From positions 672,001-736,000 of the forward strand of contig CAXXMD010000003.1 of assembly GCA_963675755.2 (NCBI GenBank): a stretch of 64,000 bases of DNA, in the 5' to 3' direction. Position 1 is the first letter of the stretch; each line of letters opens with the position of its first letter. The position numbers were made by a program, and so were the translations under genes. The notes under the pieces were generated by a model that was given only the letters and a program-made list of their open reading frames with translations, was not told the DNA's origin and did no database searches. This DNA is from a bacterium (lineage in GTDB: Bacteria; Zhuqueibacterota; Zhuqueibacteria; Residuimicrobiales; Krinioviventaceae). Shown in pieces: positions 10,510-28,465 of this stretch.

Positions 10510-10630
10510 CGTTGGCTCCAAGCTGTGCTTGGAGAGAATAGCACAAAACGCAAAACATTAATTTGCATACATTCGCGAAGCAGAGCTTCGCACAACAGTT
10601 CCGTCCCAAATAGGAATTTGGGACGGAGAA
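10510..10630. repeat. REP-like cluster of three hairpins
   Basis: CTCCAAGC-tgt-GCTTGGAG, GCGAAGC-aga-GCTTCGC and TCCGTCCCAAAT-agga-ATTTGGGACGGA, all intergenic. Confidence 0.65.
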
Positions 10631-10683
10631 TTTATAGCGATTTAAGGTAAACAATCTTAGAAAAGTGGGGTTCCCAAAATCTA

Positions 10684-12243
10684 TTACTTTACCAGCAGCA
10701 ATCTTTCTTCACCGGCGGAGAGTTTAACAGGCAGTCCCTCATGCAATGCCTTGCCGGTGGTGGTTGTTTTGGATTTGTTCGAGACGTCTTTAACCACATA
10801 GTCCTTGTCTGATTCTACCGTGAACCACTCGGGCAGGGTGTTCATGCGCGGCCAGTCGTATGCAAATCCCATATATTCGCGGTACCGGGGGATATCAAAA
10901 ACCAGTGTACCGGACCATTCCTTGTCCGCTTTTAGAACAATGGCCAGGCCGTCCTCGGTTTCACTGGCACCGAGTTTCAGGTCCTGCCGCCAGGGACGTG
11001 CAATAACGCCGCGGGTATGCATGAACGCGTGCATCAGGGTGGTACGCACACCATTGGATTGCAATTTCATGGTGCCCCAGAGCTTGGCGGTTTGTAACGG
11101 TTCATTTGCATAAACCACATTGGCCGCCATCTCCTGGTCTACCCAGGCGAATCCCTCGGGTACCGGAAGCCGGTTGAGCATGTATATGGCCCCCTCAATA
11201 GAGTCCGCAAATCCGTCTATACTCTCTCCTTCCCAGGGATAATTGGTATAAAAAGGTTTGGCCAGGTTTTTCAATGTCTGCTCCATATGCGCGCGATACA
11301 CCGATTGTTTGGCCACCATGTCATAACACAAATAGCCCACATAATTATATCCCCAGCCGTCGCTCAGGTGCGCATTGTCTTTTTGATCAAAAGTATTGTA
11401 CATGATTCCGTCTTCATTAATGCCACTTTCCAGAATGGTATCCAGCATTTTTTTGATCAATGGTTGATACACACGGGCTTTATCCGGATTGTGGACCGAT
11501 TCCACTCCAAGCAGCAATCCGAGTCCTCCAATAATCTCGCAGCCATGGTCGCGCAAGCGATTGGGGACAAAATCGCCGGGCAGCAGATAATAGTCTGCCA
11601 GCCGCTCTGCCCACTCTAAATATTTTTTCTCGCCGGTCATGGTGTAGAGTCTTGCCAGCGCCTGAAGCTGCTCTCCATTGACTTCAATGTTTTTAGAAGG
11701 GATCTTGCCGTAATCGGTATCGTATTTGGCGTATTTCCAGATATCATCCTCAATGTCGCGCATCCGATCAAACCACTCGTCCTTGCCGGTGATCTCTACA
11801 ATGGCAATCAGCCCGTCTTTGACGTATTCCGAGGCCTGGAACATCATCTCGTCATAATCTAATTCTATTTTCTTTTTATTCTCATAATCATAGGGAACGG
11901 GGATGCGGTCCAGTTCGTTGCAAAGCTTTTGTTCCGCATGAAGGATATCCCGCACCGGACCGTTGAGAGCGTCCTGGTCCACAATATACGCTGCCCAGGT
12001 CAAAAAAGGATAACAGTCCGCGGCAGTATCTCGATAGTTCCATTTGCCATCGGCAATATAGAGGCCTGTGCCGGGATCAATGCGTTCCAGCGCCACCTCG
12101 TGCAGCCAGCGATGTACCTTGCTGAGCGAGTAGCCGGCAATCTCGGATGATTGACGGGCTGTCTCAAAATCATAGCTTTTACTGCATGAAAAAATAAATA
12201 CCAATGTGAAAATTAATAAAATGTGCAGATACTTCATTTCCAT
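10684..12243 (-). CDS. Lipoprotein, probable (alpha/alpha)6 barrel (glycosidase-like), function unknown
   Basis: Lipobox-like IFSC; LARLYTMTGEKKYLEWAERLAD helical-hairpin repeat; AGGAG SD. Confidence 0.7.
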   Translation of the reverse strand: MEMKYLHILLIFTLVFIFSCSKSYDFETARQSSEIAGYSLSKVHRWLHEVALERIDPGTGLYIADGKWNYRDTAADCYPFLTWAAYIVDQDALNGPVRDILHAEQKLCNELDRIPVPYDYENKKKIELDYDEMMFQASEYVKDGLIAIVEITGKDEWFDRMRDIEDDIWKYAKYDTDYGKIPSKNIEVNGEQLQALARLYTMTGEKKYLEWAERLADYYLLPGDFVPNRLRDHGCEIIGGLGLLLGVESVHNPDKARVYQPLIKKMLDTILESGINEDGIMYNTFDQKDNAHLSDGWGYNYVGYLCYDMVAKQSVYRAHMEQTLKNLAKPFYTNYPWEGESIDGFADSIEGAIYMLNRLPVPEGFAWVDQEMAANVVYANEPLQTAKLWGTMKLQSNGVRTTLMHAFMHTRGVIARPWRQDLKLGASETEDGLAIVLKADKEWSGTLVFDIPRYREYMGFAYDWPRMNTLPEWFTVESDKDYVVKDVSNKSKTTTTGKALHEGLPVKLSAGEERLLLVK

Positions 12244-12359
12244 CTCCTCCCGATCAGGTTATGTTATAAAAGAATAGCAAATTGAAGGCAATAAAGCAAG
12301 TGCAATATCTTTAGTTCTTTCAGGATGTGGATTGGCGCACACTTAAAAACTGAACCACA

Positions 12360-13160
12360 AAGCCGCCAAGAACGCAAAGGGATAAAATCAAGTTCGGTGA
12401 AATCGTATTAAAAGAAAGATTAAAATAAACCACAGATGAACGCAGATAAAATCACTTGACGGATTGTGACGGTGAGCATCTCTTTCATGATAATAAATAT
12501 TGCATACCTGACGGCATGCGAATACATTTTTTTAATTTTCTACAAATATTTTATCCCTAACGGGATAATTTCAATACGACCTATTTACGAATTTGTGAGT
12601 GCCGATTTAGCATTTATAGGCCCCGTCAGGGGCCAAATATTTGTAGCATCCGGTCTCCAAACCCTTCGCGTCCCATAGGGACGCAATCTGGGATTATGAT
12701 AAAAATTTTAGATTTTTGACACCGAGTAAAAAAAATCTTTAACTACAAGGCCGGAGTCCTGGAATGAGGATTAAAGCCGCCAAGTACAAAAGGGAAAAAT
12801 GAACCACAGATAAACGCAGATTAAACCACTTGACGGATTGTGACGGTGAGCATCTCTTTCATGATAAAAATATTGCATACCTGACGGCATGCGAATACAT
12901 TTTTTTAAATTTTCTACAAATATTATATCCCTAACGGGATAATTTCAATACGCCTATTTACGAATTTGTGAGTGCCGATTTAGCTTTCATCGGCCCCGTC
13001 AGGGGCCAAATATTTGTAGCATCCGGTCTCCAAACCTTTCGCGTCCCATAGGGACGCAATCAGGGATTATGAACAAGATTTTAGATTTTTAACCCCGAGT
13101 AAAAAATAAATTCTTTTACTACAAGGCCGGAGCCTTGGAATGAGGATTAAAGCCGCAAAG
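12360..13160. repeat. Tandem direct duplication of a ~374-bp unit built from inverted REP-like hairpins
   Basis: Copies start at about 12428 and 12802 (AACCACAGAT.AACGCAGAT...). Each carries GCATACCTGACGGCATGC, CTACAAATATT..ATCCCTAACGGGAT, GGCCCCGTCAGGGGCCAAATATTTGTAG and GCGTCCCATAGGGACGC. Confidence 0.9.
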
Positions 13161-13177
13161 CGACAAGTCGGTCCCTG

Positions 13178-13225
13178 CCCTTCGACAAGCCCTTCGATAA
13201 ACTCAGGACAAGCTCAGGAACCGTG
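13178..13225. repeat. Nested CCCTTCGAC(A)AGCTCAGG-type REP-like element
   Basis: CCCTTCGACAAGC-CCTTCGATAAACTCAGG-ACAAGCTCAGGAACCG. A related CCCTTCGATAC...ACTCAG element lies at about 63363-63410. Confidence 0.55.
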
Positions 13226-13399
13226 TCAGATAAAGACAGACGTATCGAAGGGCCGACGCAGTGTAAAAAGTACAAATATGAAACGAGATATAAACAAGGA
13301 TTGACTGATCGTGACAGAGATAATCTCTGTCACGATTATAAGGATTCTTTCAAGGCTGGAGCCTTGGAACGAGGGTTAAGCATAATGCTTTTTCATTAT

Positions 13400-14464
13400 C
13401 TAATTGCTGGTTATAAATTTCTTGTACAATGCGTCAATGCGAGCCGATGTTGGCAAGGTACTGTTAAAAATCACAACCTGGTTCTTGAATGTAACGGATT
13501 TGCCTTTTTCAAGAACAAAATTAAATTGCTCAGCGCCATTTGTATAAATGTTGCTGCCCATGGGGTTCACACCATACAATCCATAATCCCTTGCCATCCA
13601 ATGCGGGGGATAGTTGATGTTATCGGGATGAGCAAAGATACAGATAGAGATACTGTCATTCTCTACATAACCGGAAAGCCGCATCCATTTGGCGCGTTTG
13701 CCCCAAACTTCCGGGTACCCCTGCAATCCATTGCTGTTTAAATACTGTCCGGTCACACCTTTTTTATCCACGACCGCGCTATCCGCCGGCTGCAGGTTCT
13801 CATCAAAAAGAAGGGTAGGACTATCTGAGGGGATCTCTAACTCGCGTCTTACCCGCATGGCAAAGGTGCCCTGCTTGGAATCCCGAAACAGCACATCAAC
13901 ATTGGGAGCGGTAAGGGTGGTCACATGTGTTATGATGCGCTTGTTTTCATCTCCACTGAAAGTATAGTGCGTTTGCTCATCAATAAAATGCTCTCCCGCA
14001 TCACTGATCCATTTCTTTGTTACTTCCAGTGTTCCGGTATCTCCGGATTCTATCCTCCCAAATTTTACATGATGAATCTTGCCATATAGCGCGCCGGGCT
14101 TTTTGGGTATTACGCCGCTGTTCCAAAAATCCACGCCGTTCACATCACCATGATTGAACCACAATCCGTAATGATGGGGATGGTCCATGCGCTCACCGGG
14201 TTTGGTCGCCAAAGGATACCCGCGGGTGATGCGTATTTCGCTCGCGGTCAGCAGCGGAAAAAGGACCGGTTTTTTCAATATAGTATCCGCATACATATAA
14301 GAGGTAAAATATTTTCCGTCGATGAAAATATCCAGCTTGTTCTGCGATTCATTTTGCACCAGGGAAACATGATCAGATTTTGCTTTAGTAGAAGATTGGC
14401 AGGAAACAAGGACGAACAGGATTGATAAAATCAAGCAAAGATACGCTATTGTCTTTTTCATCAA
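13400..14464 (-). CDS. PmoA-like/DUF6807-type lipoprotein (not a methane monooxygenase)
   Basis: Lipobox LVSC; KPVLFPL, DHPHHYGLWFNHGDVNG and WMARDYGL motifs. Confidence 0.8.
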   Translation of the reverse strand: MMKKTIAYLCLILSILFVLVSCQSSTKAKSDHVSLVQNESQNKLDIFIDGKYFTSYMYADTILKKPVLFPLLTASEIRITRGYPLATKPGERMDHPHHYGLWFNHGDVNGVDFWNSGVIPKKPGALYGKIHHVKFGRIESGDTGTLEVTKKWISDAGEHFIDEQTHYTFSGDENKRIITHVTTLTAPNVDVLFRDSKQGTFAMRVRRELEIPSDSPTLLFDENLQPADSAVVDKKGVTGQYLNSNGLQGYPEVWGKRAKWMRLSGYVENDSISICIFAHPDNINYPPHWMARDYGLYGVNPMGSNIYTNGAEQFNFVLEKGKSVTFKNQVVIFNSTLPTSARIDALYKKFITSN

Positions 14465-14619
14465 AATTCACTCCCGAATATGGATTACTACAAAATTGCC
14501 GGTCTAGAACGGTTCAAGAACCGTTCACACCAGAATAAACTGAAAAGACCTGTACGGTATTCTCAAATTAACAATTTGTATTTAGAAATCAATAAAAATC
14601 TAGGAATTGACTGGCGGCT

Positions 14620-15678
14620 CTACTCCCCTGAGCCAAAAGGTCCCGGCAGGCCATAAATTGATTTAACTTTATCCATTACACCGGGTGTCAAAAATCGCTC
14701 ATAAAGGATATTTGCCTTGGCCTCAAACTCGGCAATAGACCGGTCAGTCAAAGCATAAGCAAGATAAAACGCGTTCACCAGAACCGTCTCGTAATTTTCT
14801 CCATAAAGCCGGGTGGGATACAGTTCATACATGTTTTCAAATCCACCTAAAAAGCCATAGGTTTTCAGGTCCTTTTGTACCTGAGCTTTACAGGCCTTGT
14901 CAATACATATCACATCCGGGGACCATATTGCCAACTGTTCTATATTGATATTGACGGGATTGGTGGATTTTGCCTGCAATCCGCTCGCAACATTTTCAAT
15001 GCCCAGCAATTGAAACGGCGTAAAAGCACCCTGTGTGGAGGTAATGCCCTGGCGGCCCTTGAATATCAATCCGCCAATGTACGCGGATACATCCTTGAAC
15101 TGATTCTGCTCTGCAATTTTAGACAATTCGGCAATCTGTTCATCCACAAATTGGATGAGGCTGTCGCACCGGTACTGACGGTCGAGTATATCTGCAATCA
15201 GACGCAGACAGTTGTCAAAATCCTGACGACGATCATACAAATCCCCGCAGGTAATATTAATGACCGGAATACCGGTTTTGTCCTGCAAGGTATTAACAGC
15301 CTGAGGACTCCCATCCGCGTAAAATATAACCTGCGGCGCGGCCTTCAGCAACAACTCGGGATCCCCCTTGGCGCCCATGCCAATGGATGGCAGTTGTTTT
15401 AAATACGGATACGCCAGCAAATAGGGACGCGCATGCTCTGTCTTTTTACGCTCCGGAAACTCTACGCCTACTACAGCTTTCGCGGCATGCAGATAACAAA
15501 CCATGCGCAGCGCCCCTCTGCCAATACAGGCAATACGGTCCACCTTCTCCGGGACCGTAACTGTACGACCACGCATGTCTGTTATGACAGATTCAGCAGA
15601 ATATGCACTGCTCACCAATAACAGGAGAACAGCAAGCACTTTAAAAGCAGTATATTTTGTTAATCGATTCATACTCAA
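14620..15678 (-). CDS. Class III (FecB/BtuF/TroA-like) metal-chelate ABC substrate-binding protein
   Basis: Signal peptide; ITDMRGRTVTVPEKVDRIACIG, RPYLLAYPYLKQLPSIG, DPELLL, INIEQLAIWSPDVI. Confidence 0.88.
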   Translation of the reverse strand: MSMNRLTKYTAFKVLAVLLLLVSSAYSAESVITDMRGRTVTVPEKVDRIACIGRGALRMVCYLHAAKAVVGVEFPERKKTEHARPYLLAYPYLKQLPSIGMGAKGDPELLLKAAPQVIFYADGSPQAVNTLQDKTGIPVINITCGDLYDRRQDFDNCLRLIADILDRQYRCDSLIQFVDEQIAELSKIAEQNQFKDVSAYIGGLIFKGRQGITSTQGAFTPFQLLGIENVASGLQAKSTNPVNINIEQLAIWSPDVICIDKACKAQVQKDLKTYGFLGGFENMYELYPTRLYGENYETVLVNAFYLAYALTDRSIAEFEAKANILYERFLTPGVMDKVKSIYGLPGPFGSGE

Positions 15679-16448
15679 TTACACACAATTTCTGAAAAAT
15701 TCGCAACACCGGGCATGGTCTCTACCAGCGGTAAAACGTCGTTATAATCCACATCATAGAGCTTTTCAATATTGGAGATGCTCAACACATCTTTGCCGCC
15801 CTTGGCTATCATTTTACCCGATTTTAACAATACCAGTTCGGTACAGTAGGCATAAGCGATAGAAATGTCATGCACGCTAATGACAATGGTTTTACCCGTT
15901 TCCGCAAGACGGCTGAGGATATTCATCACCTCTATCTTGTATTTCAGATCCAGATTGGCTGTGGGTTCGTCCATAATAATCACCGGGGTTTGTTGACTCA
16001 GCGCCTTGGCAATGCAGACACGCTGCCGCTGTCCACCGCTCAAGGTCTGCACCGGACGCATGGCCATATCTTCAAGCTCCAGTTCAGCCAGTACCTGAGA
16101 AACAATATCGATATCCTTACAAGAAGGATTCGATCCAAAATGGGGTTTACGGCCCAGCAGTACCGTTTCGAAAACGGTGCCGGTGCCAAACTGTTTGGTG
16201 TCCTGCGGAACATAGGCGGCAATGGCAGCCCGTTTGCGCGCACCCAGTTTGTGCATGGTCTTGCCGCAGATCTGAACATTTCCGGATATTACCGGTAAAA
16301 TACCGTGCATGCACTTTAACAGCGTGGTCTTGCCAGATCCGTTTGCGCCCAAAATACCACACAGATTTCCGGCAGCCACTGTGAACGATATATCCTGCAA
16401 TACCGGATTTTCGGTATATCCAAAGTCGAGTTTGCTCATGTGTATCAT
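15675..16448 (-). CDS. FecE/BtuD-like ABC ATPase
   Basis: Probable start MIHMSKLDF (16448); GANGSGKT, LSGGQRQR, IMDEPTANLD, SVHD. Confidence 0.92.
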   Translation of the reverse strand: MIHMSKLDFGYTENPVLQDISFTVAAGNLCGILGANGSGKTTLLKCMHGILPVISGNVQICGKTMHKLGARKRAAIAAYVPQDTKQFGTGTVFETVLLGRKPHFGSNPSCKDIDIVSQVLAELELEDMAMRPVQTLSGGQRQRVCIAKALSQQTPVIIMDEPTANLDLKYKIEVMNILSRLAETGKTIVISVHDISIAYAYCTELVLLKSGKMIAKGGKDVLSISNIEKLYDVDYNDVLPLVETMPGVANFSEIVCN

Positions 16449-16450
16449 AT

Positions 16451-17506
16451 CTATAGTCCTTTGTTCCTGATGAGCATAATGATAAAAAACGGAGCGCCAA
16501 AAAACGCAGTCACAATGCCTACAGGCAATATAACCGGTTGTAATACAAAACGCGCCAACGTGTCGGATAAGAGCAGAAACAATCCACCAAACACGGCACA
16601 TGCCGTAACCAGCATGGTCTGGCTTTTAAAAAAGTAACGGCAAAAGTGAGGGGCCAAAAGCCCAACAAAACTGATGATACCATATCCGGATACAATCATG
16701 GACGTCATGAGCGATGCCAAAAGCAAAACACGCAGACGGAACCGCGCCGGTTCTAAACCGCCTGCTTTGGCGGAATCATCACCGGATTGCAGCAGGGTAA
16801 AATCCCAGGTGTGCCGCACCATCCATATCAGAATCGGTAGAATGATCAATGCCTGTACCACAAGCATGGGATACGTGGCCCGCCCCGGATCGCCAAAGGT
16901 CCAGAATATGATCTCTGCAAGTTGACGGTCATTTGCAAAATATTGCAAAGCCGAGGTCAATGCACTGAACAGGCTGCTGGTCATAATACCTGCCAATACA
17001 ATAATAGAAGGACGACTGCCGCGGTGTTTCATCACCGTAATAATGATCAATACGGAAATCATACTAAACACAAATGCGGAAAAGCCTGAAAGCAGAGGCG
17101 TAATAAATGTAAAAGAACCCGGGTCCCAGGCAACCAGACTGCCCAGCATCCCGGAAGTCATAACCGATAAGGCCGCGCCAAAAGCAGCCGCGCCGGATAT
17201 ACCCAACGTAAAGGGAGAAGCCAGCGGATTTCGAAGCACGTTCTGCATTGACAGACCGCTTATGGATAATCCGGCGCCGGCCAAAACCGCCGCCATAATG
17301 CGCGGCATTCTGATTGACAAGAGCACCCGCCAGGCACTCGTGTCAGAGTTTATAAATAAAGACAAAATCGATAATTTTACCGGTCCCACATGAAGGGCAA
17401 GCAAAATACCAGCTGCAAGCAGCAAGGCCATGGCCCAGGTAATCCGGTACTGACGCCGCACCATTTCCGTATATTGTAATGCCGTATCTTTCATATTCAT
17501 TTCCAT
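16451..17506 (-). CDS. FecCD/BtuC-family ABC permease
   Basis: IRMPRI, MQNVLRNPLASPFTLGISGAA, GIISFVGLLAPH, LPVGIVTAFFGAPFF. Confidence 0.93.
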   Translation of the reverse strand: MEMNMKDTALQYTEMVRRQYRITWAMALLLAAGILLALHVGPVKLSILSLFINSDTSAWRVLLSIRMPRIMAAVLAGAGLSISGLSMQNVLRNPLASPFTLGISGAAAFGAALSVMTSGMLGSLVAWDPGSFTFITPLLSGFSAFVFSMISVLIIITVMKHRGSRPSIIVLAGIMTSSLFSALTSALQYFANDRQLAEIIFWTFGDPGRATYPMLVVQALIILPILIWMVRHTWDFTLLQSGDDSAKAGGLEPARFRLRVLLLASLMTSMIVSGYGIISFVGLLAPHFCRYFFKSQTMLVTACAVFGGLFLLLSDTLARFVLQPVILPVGIVTAFFGAPFFIIMLIRNKGL

Positions 17507-17507
17507 A

Positions 17508-19766
17508 TTAAATGGCCAGCGAGCAATACAGCCTCACATCCCGGCCTTTACCGGGAACAAAAGACTGAAACGCGTAATATTGGGTGTTCATAAAATTATT
17601 CACTACCAGCCGCACAACTGAATTGCCATAACGATGACGATATTTTACCCCAAGCATGAGCGAAAACAATGCATATTCCGGGGTCACATATGCATCATCC
17701 GGTAAACGGGTCTGCCGACTGTACTGCTGCACAGACAACATTGAACTCACATAGAGCTGCTTCGAGATTGAAAATCCATATCCCAGTTCTGCTTTGACAT
17801 GAAACGGCGGAATATAATCCAGAGGTTCATACAGTGTGCCTGAATCATATTCTGTAATGTCCGTTCCGTGCGTATATGCAGCTCCAAGGGAAAAGCGCAG
17901 CTCATCTGTGTTCCATAAAACATCATCGAGCTGGGTGCTTGCTTCAATCTCGCCGCCATAGATCTCGGCCCTGCCAATATTGACATATTCATAATTGAGA
18001 CCGGGCATATCGTATATAATTTCCTTGCTGATCATATTATCCAGCAGCCAATAAAACGGACTGATCTCGAACCGAAACATTGGGTGGCTGAACAGATATA
18101 CCAGATCAATATTGCGGCTATATTCCGGTATCAATTCGGGATTGCCGTACAGAATGCCGTTTGCGGTATATGTATCGCTGAACATTTCCTGCGGTGTGGG
18201 CATGCGAAACGCTTTTGCCAGATTGATTTTGACCCGGCTAAACGTGCCAAGTAAATACTGCGCCGCCAAGGCCCCGCTCAGCGCTCCGGTTTGAGTGCTC
18301 CGTTCCTGCTCCTGCTCTAAGCTGAACACATCGCCTTCATAAACAGTCGAATGATCATAACGAACACCACCCTGCAAGGACAAATGGCTTCCCGCCCGGT
18401 ATTTCAATTCCGCAAAACTGCCTGATGTTAAAGAACGTGCATTACGGCTCACCTGGTTTTCAAAATAATATCCGTTATAATAATCCGTTATATTCACCGG
18501 AGATGAAATGCTGAATCGGTAAAACTCGGCACCGTATTGCAGGGTCATATCTTTATTCAGCCTGAAAAGTGGCGTAACCTTGGCACCATACCAGGAATCA
18601 GAATACATGGTCAGTTCCTGATACGAGGGTGCTTTGGTACCGGCATTCAGATACAGTTTTTGCTGGTCTCTGTTCTCTCTGGCGTAATACACGGAAAAAG
18701 CGAGTTTTTCCAATACGCCACCCGGAGAATAATCGTAATGCATGCTATAATTATCACTGTTTTCCGCCAGCGTGTTGACATGCAGATAACGGGTGCCGCT
18801 GAATCCCACCGGTTTTCCCCACGGACCGCCACGATGCAGTTCGGCATACAGACGCAGTTCATGTGTGTTTGTATGCAGACCCGCGGCCGTGAACACGTCT
18901 TTATCGCCGTAAAAACTATTCACGGCCCTGCTGCCGTCAGCATAGTGATACACGCCGGCATTCCGGTCCCGGTACGCGCCTTTTAGCGCAAAGGTTCCGT
19001 TACTCCATCCCCCGCAATACAGTGTATTTTTTTCATTATTGTTCGATGCATAACCAGTGGTTACACGCGCGTTCAAACCCTTTTGCTTGAACGGAGATTT
19101 ATCAATCAAATTGATCACACCGGCAATAGCACCAGCCCCAAAAGTAACCGAAGCGGGGCCTTTTTCCACATCTACTTTTTCAAGATCATATATATTGACC
19201 ACATGAGACATAAATCCGGCAGGATAGCTGCTAAATCGACGGTTACCATTGCGTAGAATCAGCAATCGTTGTCCGCTTAACCCACGCAGTACAATGGGAG
19301 ACTGGTACGGATCTTTTACCACAATACCCGGTGTACGAACAAGCACCTCAGATGTGGTGGAAGGCACAATAGCCTCAATTTCTTTTTTGCTGATGGATCT
19401 TGCGGAAACCGTACTGCTGAAACGGATAGGTTGTTCAGCGGTAACGGTAATATCATCCGCCTGCAAGACTACCGGTTCCAGCTTGATAGTTGTTTCAGCA
19501 TCCGGTGTATTCACCATAAATGTAGCAGGTTTGTACTGAATGTGTTTTATCCACAATTCCACAGGGAACGAATCTGTTTTACAATTCAGGTTAAAACAAC
19601 CTGATGAATCAGTAACAACGCCTGTGCTGTCAAAAAGAACCTGAACATTGGCAATACCCTTGCCGGTACTGCTCTCGCACACCCTGCCGGTCAGAATATG
19701 CCGGGCAAATACACTGCCCGGTATCCATGCTAAAATCCATATCCATATCAAACATTTGCGTATCAT
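17508..19766 (-). CDS. TonB-dependent receptor (heme/cobalamin/metal-chelate type) with N-terminal CarboxypepD-like domain
   Basis: Signal peptide; plug motifs LRGLSGQRLLILRNG and VDVEKGPASVTFGAGAIAGVINLI; FRMPTPQEM, GNPELIPEYS, YVNIGRAEIYGGE, PGKGRDVRL. Confidence 0.9.
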   Translation of the reverse strand: MIRKCLIWIWILAWIPGSVFARHILTGRVCESSTGKGIANVQVLFDSTGVVTDSSGCFNLNCKTDSFPVELWIKHIQYKPATFMVNTPDAETTIKLEPVVLQADDITVTAEQPIRFSSTVSARSISKKEIEAIVPSTTSEVLVRTPGIVVKDPYQSPIVLRGLSGQRLLILRNGNRRFSSYPAGFMSHVVNIYDLEKVDVEKGPASVTFGAGAIAGVINLIDKSPFKQKGLNARVTTGYASNNNEKNTLYCGGWSNGTFALKGAYRDRNAGVYHYADGSRAVNSFYGDKDVFTAAGLHTNTHELRLYAELHRGGPWGKPVGFSGTRYLHVNTLAENSDNYSMHYDYSPGGVLEKLAFSVYYARENRDQQKLYLNAGTKAPSYQELTMYSDSWYGAKVTPLFRLNKDMTLQYGAEFYRFSISSPVNITDYYNGYYFENQVSRNARSLTSGSFAELKYRAGSHLSLQGGVRYDHSTVYEGDVFSLEQEQERSTQTGALSGALAAQYLLGTFSRVKINLAKAFRMPTPQEMFSDTYTANGILYGNPELIPEYSRNIDLVYLFSHPMFRFEISPFYWLLDNMISKEIIYDMPGLNYEYVNIGRAEIYGGEIEASTQLDDVLWNTDELRFSLGAAYTHGTDITEYDSGTLYEPLDYIPPFHVKAELGYGFSISKQLYVSSMLSVQQYSRQTRLPDDAYVTPEYALFSLMLGVKYRHRYGNSVVRLVVNNFMNTQYYAFQSFVPGKGRDVRLYCSLAI

Positions 19767-19799
19767 TTTCAATACAACCTGTTATATTCATTTCCAGTA

Positions 19800-20486
19800 T
19801 TATAATTCCAGCAACTGCCACATCACCGTGGTTTTTTGTTTATTCTCTCCGGAACCTTTGAATTGCGTTACCATAAACTTTACAAAGCTTCCCTCTACGG
19901 TTTGTACCAGAAATACAGGTTGTAAATCCTCTTCATTCTGATCTTCGGGTATGGATATAATACGTGTGCGGAACTTGTTGCCAATCACGCAACCATCATA
20001 CGCCGCCATGATCAGAGATTTGTCATAAAATCCGCTGTCATTGACGCAGGAATTGAAATCAATAGTAATATCAGAAGCCAGGCTGTCAAGCATTGCAGAC
20101 GTGATCTCGGTAAAAGAATTGAAATAATCAATTCCCGTTCCTGCCAGCATTGCCCGGGCTTCTTCTGCAAGTAGAATAGCGGGCGATCCTTCACTCTGGG
20201 TATCGCCCTTTTCATCCTCAAAATAAACCATAAGATTATAAAAGACAGCATCTGCAACAAATGCTTCCGGTGTACTGTCTCCAAAATAAGTAGTATCTGC
20301 ATATTCGCCATTATGGACAAAATCCAACCCCGCACCTGTACGGTTGATTTTAGGACTCCGTTCCAGTGCATAGGTTTTTAAGGAAAAATCTCCTTGAATT
20401 TCCGGTTCAGTTACCGTGTCATCTTTTGAGCATGAAAATGCCAACATCAAAATAAAAATCAATATAATATACAGTCGCGTTCTCAT
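19800..20486 (-). CDS. HmuY-like surface lipoprotein
   Basis: Start MRTRL after GAAAGGA; lipobox LAFSC-SKDD; C-terminal VFLVQTVEGSFVKFMVTQF...TTVMWQLL resembles the HmuY terminal hairpin; sits directly before a TBDR. The lipoprotein call is firmer than the family call. Confidence 0.6.
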   Translation of the reverse strand: MRTRLYIILIFILMLAFSCSKDDTVTEPEIQGDFSLKTYALERSPKINRTGAGLDFVHNGEYADTTYFGDSTPEAFVADAVFYNLMVYFEDEKGDTQSEGSPAILLAEEARAMLAGTGIDYFNSFTEITSAMLDSLASDITIDFNSCVNDSGFYDKSLIMAAYDGCVIGNKFRTRIISIPEDQNEEDLQPVFLVQTVEGSFVKFMVTQFKGSGENKQKTTVMWQLLEL

Positions 20487-20517
20487 ATCATGTCCTTTCT
20501 GAAAGTTACTACAGCAA

Positions 20518-20820
20518 TCAATCCAATAAATATTCACTGCACGCTTCACCCTCTTCCAGCGAATCTAGTATTTCATCAACTTTATCCTCATCAATGCCGC
20601 CATACCACCAGCCTTGAGGATATACAATCATGATCGGGCCTTTTTCACAGACTTTTAAACAACCTGTGCTCGATACCATGGCATCAAGACCTCTATCCAG
20701 GATTTCATTCTCTATAAATTGCAACAGACTTGCCGCGTCTTTTTTATTACAAATACCCTGCGGTTCACCGCTGATACGAAAGCTGTTACAAACAAATATA
20801 TGATATTCCGGTTTTTGCAT
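20518..20820 (-). CDS. Thioredoxin-like [2Fe-2S] ferredoxin, nif-associated
   Basis: HIFVC-x12-C...STGCLKVCEKGPIMIVYPQGWWYG. Confidence 0.92.
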   Translation of the reverse strand: MQKPEYHIFVCNSFRISGEPQGICNKKDAASLLQFIENEILDRGLDAMVSSTGCLKVCEKGPIMIVYPQGWWYGGIDEDKVDEILDSLEEGEACSEYLLD

Positions 20821-20845
20821 TTTCTCTCCAGCGTTTAATAATCAC

Positions 20846-22225
20846 CTACATTACCAGTTCAATGTCAACTTCGGTAGCGTCACGGTCCTGACGGTCCATC
20901 AGCATACCCAGCATTTTGATTAAAAACTGGGTAGCACCGGCATAACCAACATTCGGCAAATAACTGTGCCCTACTCGATCCAAAATGGGGAACCCATACC
21001 GCATAAAAGGTATATCTTCATCGTGTGCGATGTACTTGCCATAGGTATTTCCAATCAACAGGTCTACCGGTTCGTTCTTGATCCACTGGTGCAATAAAAA
21101 CATATCTGCACCTTTACCATTCATGAGATTATAATGATCTACCCGGTCTTCCAGCAACTCGTTCATACGATTGGCGAAATACTTGCCGGGAGTACCACTT
21201 ACAATGTGTACCGGCTGCATGTCCAGATCGAGCAAAAACTCGGTCAAGGGTATCAGGTGATCAGGATCTCCAAACAGCGCCACTTTTTTTCCATACAGGT
21301 ATTGATGCATATCCGAGATGATATCTACCAGCCGACCGCGTTCGTCAGCCATTTCTTCCGGAACGTCAACTTCGGCAGTCAGGCTCATGGCTTCAACAAA
21401 ACGGTCTGTTGCGGAAATACCAATTGGCAGATCAAGCACATCAAACGGTACCGAGCATTTGTTACGTAATGATCTAGCTGCAGACTCGGATGAAAAATAA
21501 CCCAGAGCCAGGGTATGCTTGCTGCAGCCCGTGCTTTTCAGTTCAGGGATAGTTACCCCGCCACGCGGATAAAACTCGTGCTTACCGGTCATGGGGGCGT
21601 CCATCACATTCGATGTATCCGGAAACATGACAATTTTCACTCCCATGTCTTTGGCAATCTTTTTGATCTCGCGCATATCACTGGGCTCCATCCAACCGGC
21701 AACAATATTGATCTGGTCAAAATGCTGGCCGTTTTCAGAAAAATAATCTACCATGCTTTTGGTCATGTTGGCATAGCCGGTTACATGCGAGCCCACATAA
21801 CTCGGTGTACTGGCATGGATTACAAATTTTCCTTCCGGTACTTTGCCATCATCCATTGCTTTTTTCGATATCTGCTGTACATCATCACCAATGGTTTCTG
21901 ACAAACAGGTGGTATGAACAGCGATAATGTCAGGTTCATAAATTGTAAATATATTATCAATGGCTTGTACCAGGTTCGCTTGTCCGCCAAAAACGGAAGA
22001 GCCTTCCGTAAAAGAGCTGGTAGCGGCCATAACCGGTTCCTTGTAATGCCGGGTCAACGCACTGCGATGATACGCGCAGCATCCCTGAGATCCATGACTA
22101 TGGGGCATACACTTGTGAATGCCCAGCGCAGCATACATGGCGCCGACCGGCTGACAGGTTTTTGCCGGATTTATTGTCAAAGCTTTACGCTCTGTAATTT
22201 CCTTTGGTGTATGTCGTAACAACAT
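20846..22225 (-). CDS. nifK: Nitrogenase MoFe protein beta chain
   Basis: NPAKTCQP, HGSQGCCAY and HTTCLSETIGDD P-cluster ligands; TPSYVGSH; GFPILDRVG. Confidence 0.97.
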   Translation of the reverse strand: MLLRHTPKEITERKALTINPAKTCQPVGAMYAALGIHKCMPHSHGSQGCCAYHRSALTRHYKEPVMAATSSFTEGSSVFGGQANLVQAIDNIFTIYEPDIIAVHTTCLSETIGDDVQQISKKAMDDGKVPEGKFVIHASTPSYVGSHVTGYANMTKSMVDYFSENGQHFDQINIVAGWMEPSDMREIKKIAKDMGVKIVMFPDTSNVMDAPMTGKHEFYPRGGVTIPELKSTGCSKHTLALGYFSSESAARSLRNKCSVPFDVLDLPIGISATDRFVEAMSLTAEVDVPEEMADERGRLVDIISDMHQYLYGKKVALFGDPDHLIPLTEFLLDLDMQPVHIVSGTPGKYFANRMNELLEDRVDHYNLMNGKGADMFLLHQWIKNEPVDLLIGNTYGKYIAHDEDIPFMRYGFPILDRVGHSYLPNVGYAGATQFLIKMLGMLMDRQDRDATEVDIELVM

Positions 22226-22267
22226 GGTTATCCTCGTCAATCTATATTTATCACTCTATATTCTCTA

Positions 22268-23899
22268 TCAGCTTGCGGTTCTGGCAAATTGCGCATTTAA
22301 TTTGGGGCCTTTTTGCCAGGGGGGTGTAATCAAACTCCAGATACGTGAATTTACCATACGGTCAATTTCATGATAAAAGTTGATAGCACCGCCAAATGCA
22401 GCATAAGGACCGCCGTAATCATAACTGTGCAGCTGTTTCAAAGGCACGCCCATCTTTTGTACAGCGTATTTTTCCTTGATTCCCGCACAAAATACCGCAG
22501 GATTATAATAATCAATGAGTTTTTCCATCTCATAGTGGCTAATATCGTCAATAACCAAAGATTGCTTGTCCATTTCGAACATCATGCCTTCATAATCCGC
22601 AAAGACGAGTCCCTGTTTTTCAAGACGTCCTTTTTTGGTTTCACTGACACGCGGATTAAATTTTTCAGGGTCCGCGGAAACTGTTAGTTCTTCAATATTA
22701 CGGCTATCGGCGTCTACCTTGATATTTGGCAAAACCCGGCGGCCTTCATAATCATCTCGGTGCGCAAATTCGTATCCCGCAGCTATGGTTCTCATACCAA
22801 TTTCACTGAACAGATGCTGGTAATGATGCGCGCGTGAACCACCTACAAACAACATGGCCAGCTTGCCTTCTGTTTTCGGTAAAATCTCTTCCTGGGCTTT
22901 CTTGACTGCTGCCATCTCTCGCTCTATGACAGTTTCAACACGTGCTTTTAATTCTTCATCTTCAAAGAAATCTGCTATTTTTCTGAGCGATTTTGCCGTT
23001 TCCTCGGCACCAATGAAATTGATTTTGATCCAGGGAATTCCATATTTTTTCTCCATCATTTCTGCCACATAGTTGATAGAACGGTGACACATGATCATGT
23101 TCAAATCTACTGTATGCGCGTTCTCAAACTGGTTAACCGTAGAGTTTCCACTCAGGGTTGCAACCAGCTCTATACCGCATTCATCAAATAAACGTTCAAT
23201 TTCAAAAGCATCGCCACCAATATTGTATTCACCCAGCAGATTGACTCTGAACTTTTTTTCACCTTTAATCTCATCATCCAGACCAACAAGATGCTTGAAT
23301 AATTGGTTATTGGCAATATGGTGACCCGCACTTTGCGAAACACCCTTGTATCCTTCACAGCTAAATCCAAAAATATTACAATCGCCCAGTTTTTCTCTCA
23401 TCTCTTTGGCAACTGCATGTATATCATCACCTATCAAACCTACAGGACAAGTTGCAAAAATACCAATGGCTTTGGGATGAAACAGGTCATAAGCTTCCTG
23501 AATTGCTTGCTTTAATTTGTTCTCACCACCAAATACAATATTCTCATCCTGCATATCTGTAGAAAAACAATAGGTCATATAATTTTCATCTTCCGGGCCA
23601 TCTGGCTTGGTCTGGTTACGTCGGGTCAGCCAACTGTAAAATCCACAACCAATGGGACCATGGGTTATGTTGACAATATCTCGTGTGGGACCCAGTACCA
23701 CACCTTTACAACCCGCATAAGTACATCCTCGCTGGGTAATAATTCCAGGAATGGTCCGCACATTGGCCTGTATTTCCTGACCGGGCTCCTGCTCGTTGAC
23801 CACCATGGCCTTGCTTCGTTTTTTTGCAACTTTGGTTGGATATTTTTTAAGGACTTGTTCCTTAAACGCTTCCGGCGCAGGTAATGTCTTTTTCATCAT
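22268..23899 (-). CDS. nifD: Nitrogenase MoFe protein alpha chain (group II, with C-terminal-half insertion)
   Basis: RGCTYAGCKGVV, HGPIGC, TCPVGLIGDD, GVSQSAGHHIAN, MCHRS (FeMo-co Cys), GGSRAHH, YEFAH, QLHSYDY (FeMo-co His). Confidence 0.97.
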   Translation of the reverse strand: MMKKTLPAPEAFKEQVLKKYPTKVAKKRSKAMVVNEQEPGQEIQANVRTIPGIITQRGCTYAGCKGVVLGPTRDIVNITHGPIGCGFYSWLTRRNQTKPDGPEDENYMTYCFSTDMQDENIVFGGENKLKQAIQEAYDLFHPKAIGIFATCPVGLIGDDIHAVAKEMREKLGDCNIFGFSCEGYKGVSQSAGHHIANNQLFKHLVGLDDEIKGEKKFRVNLLGEYNIGGDAFEIERLFDECGIELVATLSGNSTVNQFENAHTVDLNMIMCHRSINYVAEMMEKKYGIPWIKINFIGAEETAKSLRKIADFFEDEELKARVETVIEREMAAVKKAQEEILPKTEGKLAMLFVGGSRAHHYQHLFSEIGMRTIAAGYEFAHRDDYEGRRVLPNIKVDADSRNIEELTVSADPEKFNPRVSETKKGRLEKQGLVFADYEGMMFEMDKQSLVIDDISHYEMEKLIDYYNPAVFCAGIKEKYAVQKMGVPLKQLHSYDYGGPYAAFGGAINFYHEIDRMVNSRIWSLITPPWQKGPKLNAQFARTAS

Positions 23900-23912
23900 G
23901 AACTCCTTTATA

Positions 23913-24290
23913 TTAATCCAACACTACATCACCGGACTGACCGGTACGGACCCGAATGGAATCCATCACCGGCAGCACAAATATTTTTCCATCACCGGCA
24001 TTACCTGTCTGGTTGGCTTTAATAATCGTATCCACTGTCACTTTAACTTTATCATCGGGTACCACAATCGACAACAACCGCTTGGAGACCAAAAGGGGTC
24101 CCTGTCCTAATAACGAAATTGCTTCATCTCGGCCTTCTTCAACTGCATGAAGAATGCGGTAATCCACCAAACCTTTACCACGCCCCAATACTTTACCTGT
24201 TGCCGTAAAGGAAGGCACTCCGGCGTCAGCCAGCGCGCGTTTGGTCTGGTTGATTTTATTAATTCGTATAATTGCCATCACTTCTTTCAT
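23913..24290 (-). CDS. nifI2: P-II family nitrogenase regulator NifI2
   Basis: MKEVMAIIR...GRGKG...NQTGNAGDGKIFVLPV; located between nifH and nifD. Confidence 0.9.
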   Translation of the reverse strand: MKEVMAIIRINKINQTKRALADAGVPSFTATGKVLGRGKGLVDYRILHAVEEGRDEAISLLGQGPLLVSKRLLSIVVPDDKVKVTVDTIIKANQTGNAGDGKIFVLPVMDSIRVRTGQSGDVVLD

Positions 24291-24300
24291 TTGTTATCCC

Positions 24301-24627
24301 TCACGCTTCTTTAAATCCTGAACTGATCGTGTACACTTCATCAACCGGTGAAATAAAGATTTTACCGTCTCCATAAGCACCCGATTTTCCGGTTTTTGCA
24401 TGGTCCATGATGGTCTTTATTAAAAAGTCTTTTTCTGTCTCGGGTATTACCATTATCAACATTTCTTTGGGCAGTTCATCATAAATCACTTCGCCCACCT
24501 TCAAGCCTTTTTGTTTACCACGTCCGGCAACCGGCAGCTTGGTAACCGCAGGATACCCCGCGTCTGTCAAACCCTGTAAAACGGCATCAACTTTATCAGG
24601 CCTTACAATCGCCCTTATCATTATCAT
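24301..24627 (-). CDS. nifI1: P-II family nitrogenase regulator NifI1
   Basis: MIMIRAIVRP...GRGKQKG...YDELPKE...GAYGDGKIFISPV. Confidence 0.9.
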   Translation of the reverse strand: MIMIRAIVRPDKVDAVLQGLTDAGYPAVTKLPVAGRGKQKGLKVGEVIYDELPKEMLIMVIPETEKDFLIKTIMDHAKTGKSGAYGDGKIFISPVDEVYTISSGFKEA

Positions 24628-24651
24628 AGTATCACTCCTTGTCAAAAACTC

Positions 24652-25518
<867 letters not shown>

Positions 25519-25540
25519 TTAATTGCTTACCCGGTTACAG

Positions 25541-25555
25541 GCAACGGTTGTGCCA
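25541..25555 (-). promoter_or_regulatory. Sigma54 promoter of the nifH operon
   Basis: Minus strand TGGCACAACCGTTGC, a consensus -24/-12 match. Confidence 0.9.
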
Positions 25556-25652
25556 CAGATAAACACTTGAAAGTCAACTCAGGTAACCATATGTTTTTAA
25601 GATACTTACACAGACAAAGTCAGCCATTAATAAAACAGCTCAAAATGAAAAG

Positions 25653-25787
25653 GGAAATAATTGTAACTTTTGAGGAGGGTGTTTATTGTGAGAAATCTAT
25701 AATTCTTGATCAAGCTAATGAAAAAACAGAGGGTTAGACCGTGTGACAATTATTTCCACCTTTTTTTGAAAACGGAAATAATTGTCA
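25653..25787. promoter_or_regulatory. Putative NifA upstream activator sites (three copies)
   Basis: GGAAATAATTGTAA 25653-25666, TGACAATTATTTCC 25744-25757, GGAAATAATTGTCA 25774-25787. Confidence 0.65.
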
Positions 25788-25809
25788 GATTTGAGAAAAT
25801 CACGGAATA

Positions 25810-27369
25810 TTAATCTATTAAAATTCCTAAATTTTTTATTTTATATCTTACCATTCTGGGAGTATAGCCCAATTCGCGTGCCGCAGAAGCTACATTTCCG
25901 TTGGATCGCTTTAAAGCATCTACAATAATGTCTTTTTCAATCAACTGGATACGTGCCTTCAAAGTCCCATTATCTTTGCTACCTTTTACAACATCCAGTT
26001 CTTCCGGCACCTGTAATGTAGGCGGTAAATTATATCCATGTATTGCACTGTCACTACTCAACAGAACCGCATGCTCTATACAGTTCTCAAGCTCGCGCAC
26101 ATTCCCCGGCCAGTGATAAGCCAGCAACATATTTATTGCAGGCGTGCTGATACGATGCACTTTTTTGCCCAACTTTTTCGCGTATTTCTCCACAAAAAAA
26201 TCCGCAAGAAGCAGAATATCGGACCGTCTCTCCCGCAACGGCGGCAGGAAAATGGGAAACACATTAATACGATAATAGAGATCTTCCCGAAAGGTACCTT
26301 CTGTTAGTGCTTTTTCAAGATCCCGGTTGGTTGCGGCAATTATTCTCACATTGGCTTTAATGGTTTTATTACTGCCCACACGCTCAAATTCTCGCTCTTG
26401 CAAAACCCGCAGCAACTTTGTTTGAATAGAAGGAGGAAAATCGCCTATCTCATCTAAAAACAGGGATCCACCCTCGGCCTCTTCAATTCGCCCCTTTCTT
26501 GAATACAAGGCCCCGGTAAACGCACCTTTTTCGTGCCCAAACAATTCACTTTCCAGAATATTTTCATTCAAAGCGGCACAATTCACCTTAACAAATGGCC
26601 GATTAAACCGCGGTCCTGCATAGTGAATAGCAGAAGCAACCAGCTCTTTACCCGTACCCGACTCGCCACGAATCAATACCGTCGTGGTTTCACTGCCCGA
26701 TACCTGGTAAATGCGGGTATACACACCTTTCATAGCGTGTGAATTGCCTATTATGTTTTCGGGACGGTAGCGCTGTTCCAACTCGTACCGCAATCGAATA
26801 TTTTCAGCCTCCAGGGCTTCCTTTTCCTGTCGCGTAATACGCCGCGATTTCACATCGTTTGCAATCATACCCGCAACAATTCGTAATACCCGCTCACCGT
26901 CACGTAGTATTTCTTCATCCGTACTTTCAAGGTCAACAGAAAGGGTTCCCACAACTTCATTCACTAGCATAATAGGTACACAAACAAAGCTCACATTTCT
27001 AACCTGTCCGTCAAACCGCCTGTGAATACGGTCTTTAAAATCCGGTTCATCAGCAATGTTGGGCACAATTGCAGACTTGCCGGCTTCTACAACCTTGCCG
27101 GTAACACCTTCCCCTTTTTTATAGATAATTCTGGGCCGTTCAACATCCAGATCCCCACCTGTAGCTTCAACAATCAACTCTTTTCCATCAATAGTCAAGA
27201 GCATAATTGTTCCGCGAATCATATACAAGTCTGCTTCAAGCGTTTGTAATATATTTCGAAAAATTTTGCGCTGCGATGTTTCGGTTGCAAGGATATTGGC
27301 AACCGCATACAGTGCATCGAGTTCTTTTTCATGCCTGATCAGATGCGCATTCAAGATTTCCACTAGCAT
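25810..27369 (-). CDS. nifA: Nif-specific sigma54 activator (GAF-AAA+-HTH)
   Basis: GAF with GEGVTGKV; GESGTGKE, ESELFGHEKGAFTGA, WPGNVRELEN; adjacent to nifH. Confidence 0.9.
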   Translation of the reverse strand: MLVEILNAHLIRHEKELDALYAVANILATETSQRKIFRNILQTLEADLYMIRGTIMLLTIDGKELIVEATGGDLDVERPRIIYKKGEGVTGKVVEAGKSAIVPNIADEPDFKDRIHRRFDGQVRNVSFVCVPIMLVNEVVGTLSVDLESTDEEILRDGERVLRIVAGMIANDVKSRRITRQEKEALEAENIRLRYELEQRYRPENIIGNSHAMKGVYTRIYQVSGSETTTVLIRGESGTGKELVASAIHYAGPRFNRPFVKVNCAALNENILESELFGHEKGAFTGALYSRKGRIEEAEGGSLFLDEIGDFPPSIQTKLLRVLQEREFERVGSNKTIKANVRIIAATNRDLEKALTEGTFREDLYYRINVFPIFLPPLRERRSDILLLADFFVEKYAKKLGKKVHRISTPAINMLLAYHWPGNVRELENCIEHAVLLSSDSAIHGYNLPPTLQVPEELDVVKGSKDNGTLKARIQLIEKDIIVDALKRSNGNVASAARELGYTPRMVRYKIKNLGILID

Positions 27370-27640: not shown

Positions 27641-28465
27641 TTACGCATTTCCTGCGTCCAAACCCACAAATTTTGAATAGACTTCCGGACCCAGTTTACG
27701 TCTCAATACTATCTTAATCATCCTGACCGGCAGCTTGCCAATCATCTTGTAAAGCAAATTTATTTTAGATGGTACAAAATAATCTGCTCCAAACCAGTTT
27801 TTATCTTGCCAGTATTGATAATCTGCGGGAAACCTGTCTTTGTGCATTTGAATCTTTGTTCGGATCTTGTTAAAAAAGACGACATCTGCCATAGAAGGCT
27901 TGGCCGTTTCGTCAACAGACATTTGTCCATACAGCTTTTCAGCAGCATGGCGAATATTAACCAACATCTTTTCCCGATAAGGCCCGGGCTCATTAAATGC
28001 CGGAGCTATCACCCCTATTTCATCAACCAGATTAAATCCCATAGCTTTTACTGGAAACTTGAGATGGTGTAAAGCCTCTTTTAGTCCGCTCAACTCGGTA
28101 GTACTGATCAACATGGCTTGCTTGTCGTGAAAACATGGACGATGAAGATAGTATGCCATGCGGTCAAACAAATTTTTTATTGGCGCTGTAATAGAATGCA
28201 CATACACCGGCGAAACAAACAAAACCGCATCTGCATTACACATCTTTTCACGGATCATGGGCACATCATCTTTTAAGGGACAATGATCTTCTCCTTTGCG
28301 CATGCATGCCAGACATCCCCTGCAATATTCTATTTTAAATTTCCGAATTGTAACAAATTCTAATTCAACATCACCATATTCCTGCATGTGCTCAATCAAC
28401 AATTTTACGACTTTATAACTATCTCCTTTTCTTGGGCTTCCTGACAGTGCAAGTACTTTTTTCAT
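27641..28465 (-). CDS. Flavodoxin-fold iron-sulfur flavoprotein (Isf/WrbA-like)
   Basis: LSGSPRKGDS, CRGCLAC-x7-C, SPVY, KNLFDR. Confidence 0.85.
   Translation of the reverse strand: MKKVLALSGSPRKGDSYKVVKLLIEHMQEYGDVELEFVTIRKFKIEYCRGCLACMRKGEDHCPLKDDVPMIREKMCNADAVLFVSPVYVHSITAPIKNLFDRMAYYLHRPCFHDKQAMLISTTELSGLKEALHHLKFPVKAMGFNLVDEIGVIAPAFNEPGPYREKMLVNIRHAAEKLYGQMSVDETAKPSMADVVFFNKIRTKIQMHKDRFPADYQYWQDKNWFGADYFVPSKINLLYKMIGKLPVRMIKIVLRRKLGPEVYSKFVGLDAGNA

Follow-up and report, generated by a model that had tools for sequence, protein, structure and literature searches.

An intact molybdenum nitrogenase operon without nifE, nifN and nifB on the chromosome of an uncultured KSB1 bacterium

We analyzed a window of 64 kilobases (kb) of DNA (the whole stretch G000:C3:672001-736000) from G000, the genome of an uncultured KSB1-phylum bacterium. 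The window carries a molybdenum (Mo) nitrogenase operon in which nifK is directly followed by a ferredoxin gene, fdx. The genes nifE, nifN and nifB (nifENB), along with modA and MoaA, are missing from the chromosome. What remains, namely nifA, a sigma-54 promoter, nifH, nifI1, nifI2, nifD, nifK and fdx, is intact and under strong purifying selection in two species of one genus, represented by G000 and its sister species G001, both of them metagenome-assembled. The genus lost exactly nifENB, about 4.9 kb, leaving a spacer of 25 nucleotides (nt) between nifK and fdx. In a second event, modABC was replaced by genes for a HmuY-like lipoprotein, a TonB receptor and an ABC metal-chelate importer.

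Results

The cofactor genes are absent from the entire chromosome

All nif and importer genes of the window lie on the minus strand. The elements of the nif operon, in the order of transcription, are:

25810..27369, minus strand: nifA; GAF, Sigma54_activat (sigma-54 AAA+) and HTH_8 domains (Pfam); TIGR01817 527.3 bits, cut-off 528.85
25774-25785, 25746-25757 (inverted) and 25653-25664, minus strand: three copies of the 12-mer ACAATTATTTCC, between nifA and nifH
25540..25555, minus strand: sigma-54 type -24/-12 promoter TGGCACAACCGTTGCC, 5' of nifH, from a pattern search
24652..25494, minus strand: nifH (Fe protein); TIGR01287 459 bits, cut-off 394.35
24301..24645, minus strand: nifI1 (PII-type regulator); Pfam P-II 77.6 bits; 68% identity to NifI1 of the related locus L010; pN/pS 0.029
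23913..24290, minus strand: nifI2 (PII-type regulator); Pfam P-II 73.6 bits; pN/pS 0.056
22268..23899, minus strand: nifD (MoFe protein alpha subunit, anaerobe type with the long insertion); TIGR01282 682.9 bits, cut-off 653.55
20846..22240, minus strand: nifK (MoFe protein beta subunit); TIGR01286 426.0 bits, cut-off 427.3
20821..20845, minus strand: nifK-fdx spacer, 25 nt, which we read as the scar of the nifENB deletion
20518..20820, minus strand: fdx, thioredoxin-like [2Fe-2S] ferredoxin of 100 residues; NF041612 97.9 bits, cut-off 150

The G000 assembly comprises 6.48 megabases (Mb) in three contigs, is 98% complete and contains no N. Across this whole genome, PF00148 matched two proteins, NifD and NifK, among seven scored candidates, with no NifE or NifN, and the nifB model TIGR01290 had no match. 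Searching the genome by tblastn with the NifE, NifN, NifB, NifX-like and ModA proteins of L010 recovered NifD and NifK only, and the same search with the proteins of G187, a KSB1 genome, likewise returned NifD and NifK and no nifE, nifN or nifB. We also built profile hidden Markov models (HMMs) from the nearest relatives (59 NifE, 50 NifN, 56 NifB and 14 ModA sequences) and ran them against all 42,831 six-frame segments of G000. The NifE and NifN models matched only NifD and NifK, the top NifB match reached 16.6 bits and fell on a NifX-like domain, and the top ModA match had an E-value of 0.053.

Searches of the G001 genome, in which the gene order is that of G000, did not find nifE, nifN or nifB either. 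G001 is one 6.5-Mb contig whose ends map head to tail on G000 C3:1021544-1021557, and its chromosome is therefore a closed circle. The junction from nifK through fdx to the lipoprotein gene is moreover bridged without insertion by independent Logan contigs from two studies, both short-read assemblies, one of them 9.9 kb long and without differences, the other 16.9 kb long and with 265. The original prediction, made from the window, had placed 25 nt between the nifK stop and the fdx start and had reported nifE, nifN and nifB missing from the 64 kb. The spacer is exactly as described, and the absence extends to all of G000 and to the closed chromosome of G001.

The genes for handling molybdenum were also sought. 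No modA was found in G000 or G001, while G187 has one; the sole SBP_bac_11 match in G000 is weak (33 bits), and the top MoaA match there reached 78 bits (cut-off 284). Judging from its gene content, molybdenum metabolism other than the Mo-type nitrogenase genes appears to be absent in G000. No dedicated nifV was found in G000; the top matches of the NifV profile are LeuA-sized proteins of ~520 residues and were not accepted as nifV. Another locus of the genome, L092 (G000:C2:777000-781500), encodes PadR, a NifX-like protein, two MinD/ParA proteins with Fer4, and an Mrp/NBP35 protein fused to a NifX-like domain. We rejected its NifX-like genes (PF02579; C2:777-781 kb) as nif-specific, since 16 of 19 family genomes contain PF02579 genes of this type, and nearly all of these genomes have no nif.

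The remaining nitrogenase is intact

NifD and NifH pass their curated equivalog cut-offs, and NifK falls 1.3 bits short. The nearest solved structure is the C. pasteurianum MoFe protein (PDB 4WES/1MIO): NifD aligns to 4WES_A with 640 bits over residues 10-531, and NifK aligns end to end with 1MIO_B with 590 bits. We assessed conservation using alignments of full-length NifH, NifD and NifK from related loci (66, 81 and 73 rows, respectively), considering columns with a conservation of at least 95% across the other rows. G000 deviates at 0 of 178 such columns in NifH, 0 of 219 in NifD and 1 of 172 in NifK (R194K); the median deviations of the other rows are 0, 1 and 1. Every Cys and His column conserved at this level is retained in all three proteins. 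These include C59, C85, C151, C271 and H491 of NifD (79 NifD relatives) and C29, C54 and C112 of NifK (71 NifK relatives), in agreement with the alignments to 4WES and 1MIO. The NifD residues presumably correspond to Cys62, Cys88, Cys154, Cys275 and His442 of A. vinelandii. By this alignment, the predicted iron-molybdenum cofactor (FeMo-co) ligands and the six predicted P-cluster cysteines are all present. Given the retained ligands and the 640-bit match to a solved MoFe protein, we did not class the enzyme among the nitrogenase-like (NFL) enzymes of Groups IV-VI.

The ferredoxin, aligned to PDB 1F37, retains four of four cluster cysteines, alongside a family score below the cut-off (membership being defined by NF041612/NF041613). 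It is 76% identical to the ferredoxin encoded 3' of nifB in G187.

The comparison of G000 with G001 shows that constraint has persisted. The seven genes of the nif operon align between the two species without gaps, frameshifts or stops. Pooled, they differ by 354 synonymous and 46 non-synonymous changes, a pN/pS of 0.037 (Nei-Gojobori paths; Fisher p ~2e-192 versus equality), and NifH differs by 24 synonymous changes and no non-synonymous one. The corresponding value for the transporter cluster is 0.111 (five genes aligned without gaps; the TonB receptor is left out). In the tree of NifD and NifK, the branch from the node shared with G187 measures 0.194 to G000 and ~0.196 to G187, and these near-equal lengths indicate no acceleration after the loss of nifENB. 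It had been suggested earlier that NifD and NifK keep their ligands, that NifH is intact and that the enzyme does not look decayed; the conserved columns, the pN/pS and the unlengthened branch fully bear this out.

A deletion in this lineage removed nifENB

By its RpoB, the organism falls among KSB1 and Caldithrix-like bacteria. The operon of G187 reads nifH-nifI1-nifI2-nifD-nifK-nifE-nifN-nifB-fdx-modA-modB-modC, and its proteins are closer to those of the window than are those of any of the first 80 loci examined (NifD 81%, NifK 77%, NifH 92% and Fdx 76% identity). A 74-row tree of NifD plus NifK places G187 as sister to G000 and G001 with an SH-aLRT support of 99. When the two loci are aligned as DNA, nifK (72%) and fdx (74%) correspond, and the ~4.9 kb between them in G187, containing nifE, nifN and nifB, has no counterpart. 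The nifENB-bearing order of G187, its sister position and this unmatched segment together identify the loss as a deletion in the lineage of the window. The spacer measures 25 nt in G001 as well, with 2 differences, and the equal length in both species implies that the deletion is older than their split. The breakpoints could not be mapped, as the spacer has no convincing similarity to the G187 spacers after nifK or before fdx.

The genome-wide HMM search, the synteny with relatives and the comparison of synonymous with non-synonymous changes, all proposed with the original prediction, thus yielded no nifENB operon elsewhere, a close relative that bears nifENB, and purifying selection.

A NifK tree of 23 chosen rows contains more lineages in the same clade, with NifK P0129 and P0130/P0251 being 83-84% and P0131 80% identical to that of G000. 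NifK P0251 and NifE P0010 seem to share one 8,062-bp contig. Similarly, NifK P0131 and a lipoprotein, P0003, that is 59% identical to the one in the window seem to share a contig of 206,863 bp, to which none of the best 120 NifE relatives could be attributed.

The arrangement is rare among relatives

In 52 of 79 related genome loci, the gene after nifK is nifE; in 9 it is the ferredoxin gene, in 10 there is another gene or nothing, and in 2 the contig ends, while the other 6 have no full nifK. Five of the nine nifK-fdx loci hold nifENB elsewhere on the same locus, and the genomes of the other four, together with that of locus L012, all carry at least four NifDKEN-family genes (5 of 5). The 80 metagenome loci show nifE after nifK in 61, the contig end in 14, no reference match in 4 and no nifK in 1. 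This ferredoxin follows nifB in 49 of 56 related nifB loci (a contig end in 1 and another gene in 6), in line with the earlier statement that it commonly does so. Of the 50 genomes with close NifD relatives that were searched for NifB itself (50 of the 79 loci), 48 have it, and in the two genomes without it, nifD lies on contigs of 4.5 and 3.9 kb.

PF00148 genes occur in 5 of 167 genomes of the phylum, and only G187 has four. Pairs of distant PF00148 genes, ~31% identical to NifD, were observed in G034:C45 and G146:C22; by sequence, these are probably nitrogenase-like enzymes and not nitrogenase. We found no further members of the genus in the genome and metagenome collections searched.

An importer occupies the place of modABC

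The genes that follow fdx on the same strand are:

19800..20486, minus strand: HmuY-like surface lipoprotein; start moved to the ATG at 20486; signal peptide ending in the lipobox LAFSC
17508..19772, minus strand: TonB-dependent receptor; Pfam Plug and TonB_dep_Rec_b-barrel; TIGR01785 176.6 bits, cut-off 316.85
16451..17506, minus strand: FecCD/BtuC-type ABC permease; PF01032 257.9 bits
15675..16601, minus strand: ABC ATPase, metal-chelate importer type; PF00005
14620..15678, minus strand: periplasmic binding protein (Peripla_BP_2); PF01497 36.6 bits
13400..14464, minus strand: DUF6807 protein; PF14100 235 bits; final gene of the same-strand run, at the same position in G001

The lipoprotein gene starts 31 nt past fdx, and this spacer is fully conserved in G001. 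No terminator-like site was predicted between the two genes, in a promoter and terminator scan that performed no better than on shuffled sequences (38 vs 36.2 and 19 vs 15.4, respectively). The lipoprotein matches Pfam HmuY with an E-value of 0.0049, below the cut-off. Its structural model reached a pLDDT of 34 from the single sequence and of 82 with a 7-row alignment, and the top 7 Foldseek matches of the latter model in PDB all belong to the HmuY family, with low TM-scores of 0.27-0.49. For the receptor, the closest subfamily is that of heme/hemoglobin receptors, at a score below its cut-off, and the top NCBIfam matches of the ATPase, all below cut-off too, are ATPases of corrinoid, Fe-dicitrate and heme importers. 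Rfam had no match anywhere in the window, and hence no cobalamin or other riboswitch precedes the importer. Within the family, the importer is confined to this genus (2 of 19 genomes). The DUF6807 gene may or may not belong to the unit.

Regulatory region and neighboring features

The region between nifA and nifH spans 315 nt. All three ACAATTATTTCC copies are identical in G000 and G001, and the sequence between them drifts. The copies are candidate activator-binding sites and may perhaps be an enhancer site of this lineage's own; the classical NifA site is TGT-N10-ACA, which ACAATTATTTCC does not match. The sigma-54 pattern, which follows the -24/-12 consensus, has 17 matches across the window versus 11.2 expected, and it is hence the position of TGGCACAACCGTTGCC that counts. 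The final 72 nt ahead of nifH, including this promoter, contain 1 difference between the species, and nifA has a pN/pS of 0.044. A second NifA-like activator, 48% identical to the NifA of L010, is encoded far from the nif operon (G000:C3:2109862-2112206), adjoining a PII gene.

Just upstream of nifA lies a gene with an FMN-reductase/flavodoxin fold (27641-28465), which is less conserved between the species (82.6% nucleotide identity, with gaps); from its sequence, it could be an electron donor. The nif operon has a GC content of 43% and the importer one of 46%, against ~39% for the flanks; from ~9 kb to 27 kb of the window, the GC content runs at 42-51%, compared with 36-40% right of nifA. The raised-GC tract (9000-27000) may be an acquired island exceeding the nif and importer genes. 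In the 1.1-kb gap between a GH127-like gene and the DUF6807 gene, a tandem duplication of ~374 bp (12415-13160) was observed. Its copies are 89-98% alike, each with 25-nt inverted repeats, CTACAAATATTT...CCCTAACGGG, and terminator-like hairpins.

Discussion

How a nitrogenase without chromosomal nifENB might function

We consider it probable, if by no means assured, that the operon encodes a working nitrogenase whose cofactor is supplied in trans, taking an unsampled replicon and other cells together as the source. The ancestral lineage carried nifH-nifI1-nifI2-nifD-nifK-nifE-nifN-nifB-fdx-modABC, from which nifENB was lost and in which modABC was replaced. Nitrogen limitation would still drive the operon through NifA and sigma-54, and the cell would make Fe protein and a MoFe protein with P-clusters and no cofactor. 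This apo-MoFe protein would still be required as a nitrogenase, with FeMo-co or a precursor arriving from a source off the chromosome. Continued action as a nitrogenase is suggested by the untouched cofactor pocket and by the retention of both the nitrogen-status regulators and the partner ferredoxin. Since a nitrogenase needs FeMo-co and a NifB-free route to it was not found in the literature searched, the cofactor would have to come in trans.

Several points weigh against such a supply. No RNA runs holding the locus were found, nor was a source of the cofactor. Selection across just two species cannot reveal the role of a protein. To our knowledge, it is unusual for a nif cluster to be divided between the chromosome and a plasmid, and isolated FeMo-co is labile to water and oxygen. 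An exchange of FeMo-co between cells had no precedent in the literature searched. Fifteen other genomes, chiefly of Bacteroidota and Fibrobacterota, carry the importer module, in no case beside nif (0 of 15), and its modeled fold points to heme-type ligands. Being widespread without nif and heme-like in fold, the importer is not a nif-specific device, and the presence of HemN and HemW in G000 means that heme or iron uptake suffices to explain it.

The original prediction had left three options, namely a split cluster, a precise loss and dependence on an external cofactor. The precise loss is supported by the synteny with G187, the SH-aLRT of 99 and the ~4.9-kb gap, and a split cluster fails for the chromosome and is possible with a plasmid. 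Dependence on an external cofactor has become a more pointed proposal, given that purifying selection is strong, modABC was lost in parallel and MoaA is lacking.

Between the two sources in trans, we lean towards the unsampled replicon as the more conservative one and place uptake from other cells second, as the bolder. A plasmid or second replicon carrying nifENB, nifV and modABC, missed by binning in both species, would make the organism an ordinary diazotroph with a split cluster, and we regard this as a serious possibility, though short of an even one. Both genomes are metagenome-assembled, plasmids are often left out of bins, and no new biology would be needed to explain the observed selection, regulation and ligand retention. 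It does, however, demand that the genes were copied off the chromosome and that two separate deletions followed (of nifENB and of modABC). Moreover, such a contig is absent from both assemblies, none of the 120 best relatives of the G187 NifE could be tied to this genus, and a 77%-identical NifE apparently lies on the 8,062-bp contig with the NifK of a different lineage. The bolder source would be neighboring diazotrophs, from which the finished cofactor or NifB-co is taken up and loaded into apo-NifDK. This FeMo-co auxotrophy, which we hold to be doubtful, would fit the joint lack of nifENB, modABC, a dedicated nifV and the molybdenum cofactor pathway, all of them dispensable if a finished Mo cofactor is imported. 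Apo-NifDK takes up isolated FeMo-co in vitro, and far more abundant nifK-bearing organisms are present in the same sample (contig depths of up to 193 vs 7). The entry route would possibly be the HmuY-like/TonB/ABC importer in the place of modABC, given its conserved distance from fdx, the lack of a predicted terminator and its restriction to the genus. The missing precedent, the lability of free FeMo-co and the frequency of this heme-like importer family away from nif all count against it. The full form of the proposal, a first known FeMo-co auxotroph that makes the apoproteins only and imports cofactor or NifB-co through this very system, seems to us unlikely.

The readings without a cofactor supplied in trans fare worse. 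NifHDK might work without a cofactor or with a simpler cluster, as a different kind of ATP-driven reductase, which would fit the loss of both nifENB and modABC. NifB-free relatives do exist, namely DPOR, COR, CfbCD and Group VI NFL, and according to the available parts of PMC13474568, they have no Cys275/His442 and are ~22% identical to NifDK. Here, in contrast, both ligands and 219 of 219 conserved NifD columns are kept, the branch is not longer than that of the nifENB-bearing sister, and nifA and nifI1I2 are retained under selection, making such a role distinctly unlikely. An unrelated pathway that replaces NifB and NifEN is quite improbable. G000 has 29 radical-SAM genes, and two of the ten annotated ones have no equivalog assignment (a SPASM/MoaA-like gene at C3:1995545-1996663 and a B12-binding radical-SAM gene at C3:2820602-2822056). 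None is NifB-like (with ten of the 29 annotated), however, none lies near the nif operon, and a molybdate transporter is lacking as well. With its cofactor genes gone, the operon might also be a recently orphaned remnant heading for decay, but the loss predates the species split, and the changes accumulated since then, overwhelmingly synonymous and free of frameshifts and stops, render this very improbable. Finally, chromosomal nifENB genes might have been mis-assembled out of both metagenome-assembled genomes. Such an artefact is scarcely credible, as two independent assemblies agree, G001 is circular and the Logan contigs of two studies span the junction.

The prevailing view is that no nitrogenase can do without NifB, and nitrogen fixers are recognized in genomes by the accepted test of nifHDKENB. 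In the present case, two species maintain a textbook Mo-nitrogenase under strong selection, on a closed chromosome without nifB, nifEN or molybdate handling. If the cluster is split across replicons, the six-gene test fails, which matters for every diazotroph census based on metagenome-assembled genomes. If the cofactor is instead shared between cells, they would be trading biology's most complex metal cluster like heme or B12. A third outcome would be a canonical NifDK with another use. The case also bears on moving nitrogenase into hosts that are unable to make the cofactor.

Comparison with known systems

The operon most closely resembles the anaerobe-type Mo-nitrogenase operon of G187 and most relatives, with which it shares the gene order up to nifK, nifI1I2, the long NifD insertion, all ligands and the trailing ferredoxin. 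It differs from that type in that nifE, nifN and nifB are missing from the entire chromosome and modABC is swapped for the TonB/ABC importer.

The six-gene set by which diazotrophs are recognized is nifHDKENB, as given in the available parts of Dos Santos et al. 2012 (PMC3464626), and nifE, nifN and nifB of this set are missing from the sampled DNA of G000 and G001. Nitrogenases without nifEN share this departure from the minimum set. In the available parts of PMC11573651, PMC3464626 and PMC12903952, they are reported from thermophiles and seep archaea, including Roseiflexus, Caldicellulosiruptor and ANME. All these lineages have kept nifB as well as nifV, and their NifDK makes up a lineage of its own (PMC3464626, in the parts available), whereas here nifB is gone too and NifDK is of the ordinary anaerobe type. 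The accessible portions of PMC3464626, PMC8399215 and PMC12903952 describe only cases without nifEN, all with nifB. The literature searched yielded no canonical nifHDK on a closed chromosome that lacks nifB, and the gene tables of these three papers might list further nifHDK genomes without nifB.

The NifB-free nitrogenase-like enzymes share with the present case a genome without NifB. Unlike DPOR, COR, CfbCD and Group VI NFL, the NifD described here passes its equivalog cut-off and has both cofactor ligands. Lastly, the importer recalls the HmuY-HmuR heme loci of Bacteroidota with a BtuCDF-type importer, having in common with them a HmuY-like lipoprotein, a TonB receptor of the heme type, a permease, an ATPase and a binding protein. 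It stands apart from these loci in that all its family scores are below cut-off, with the low TM-scores given above, and in that only here does it lie directly after a nif operon.

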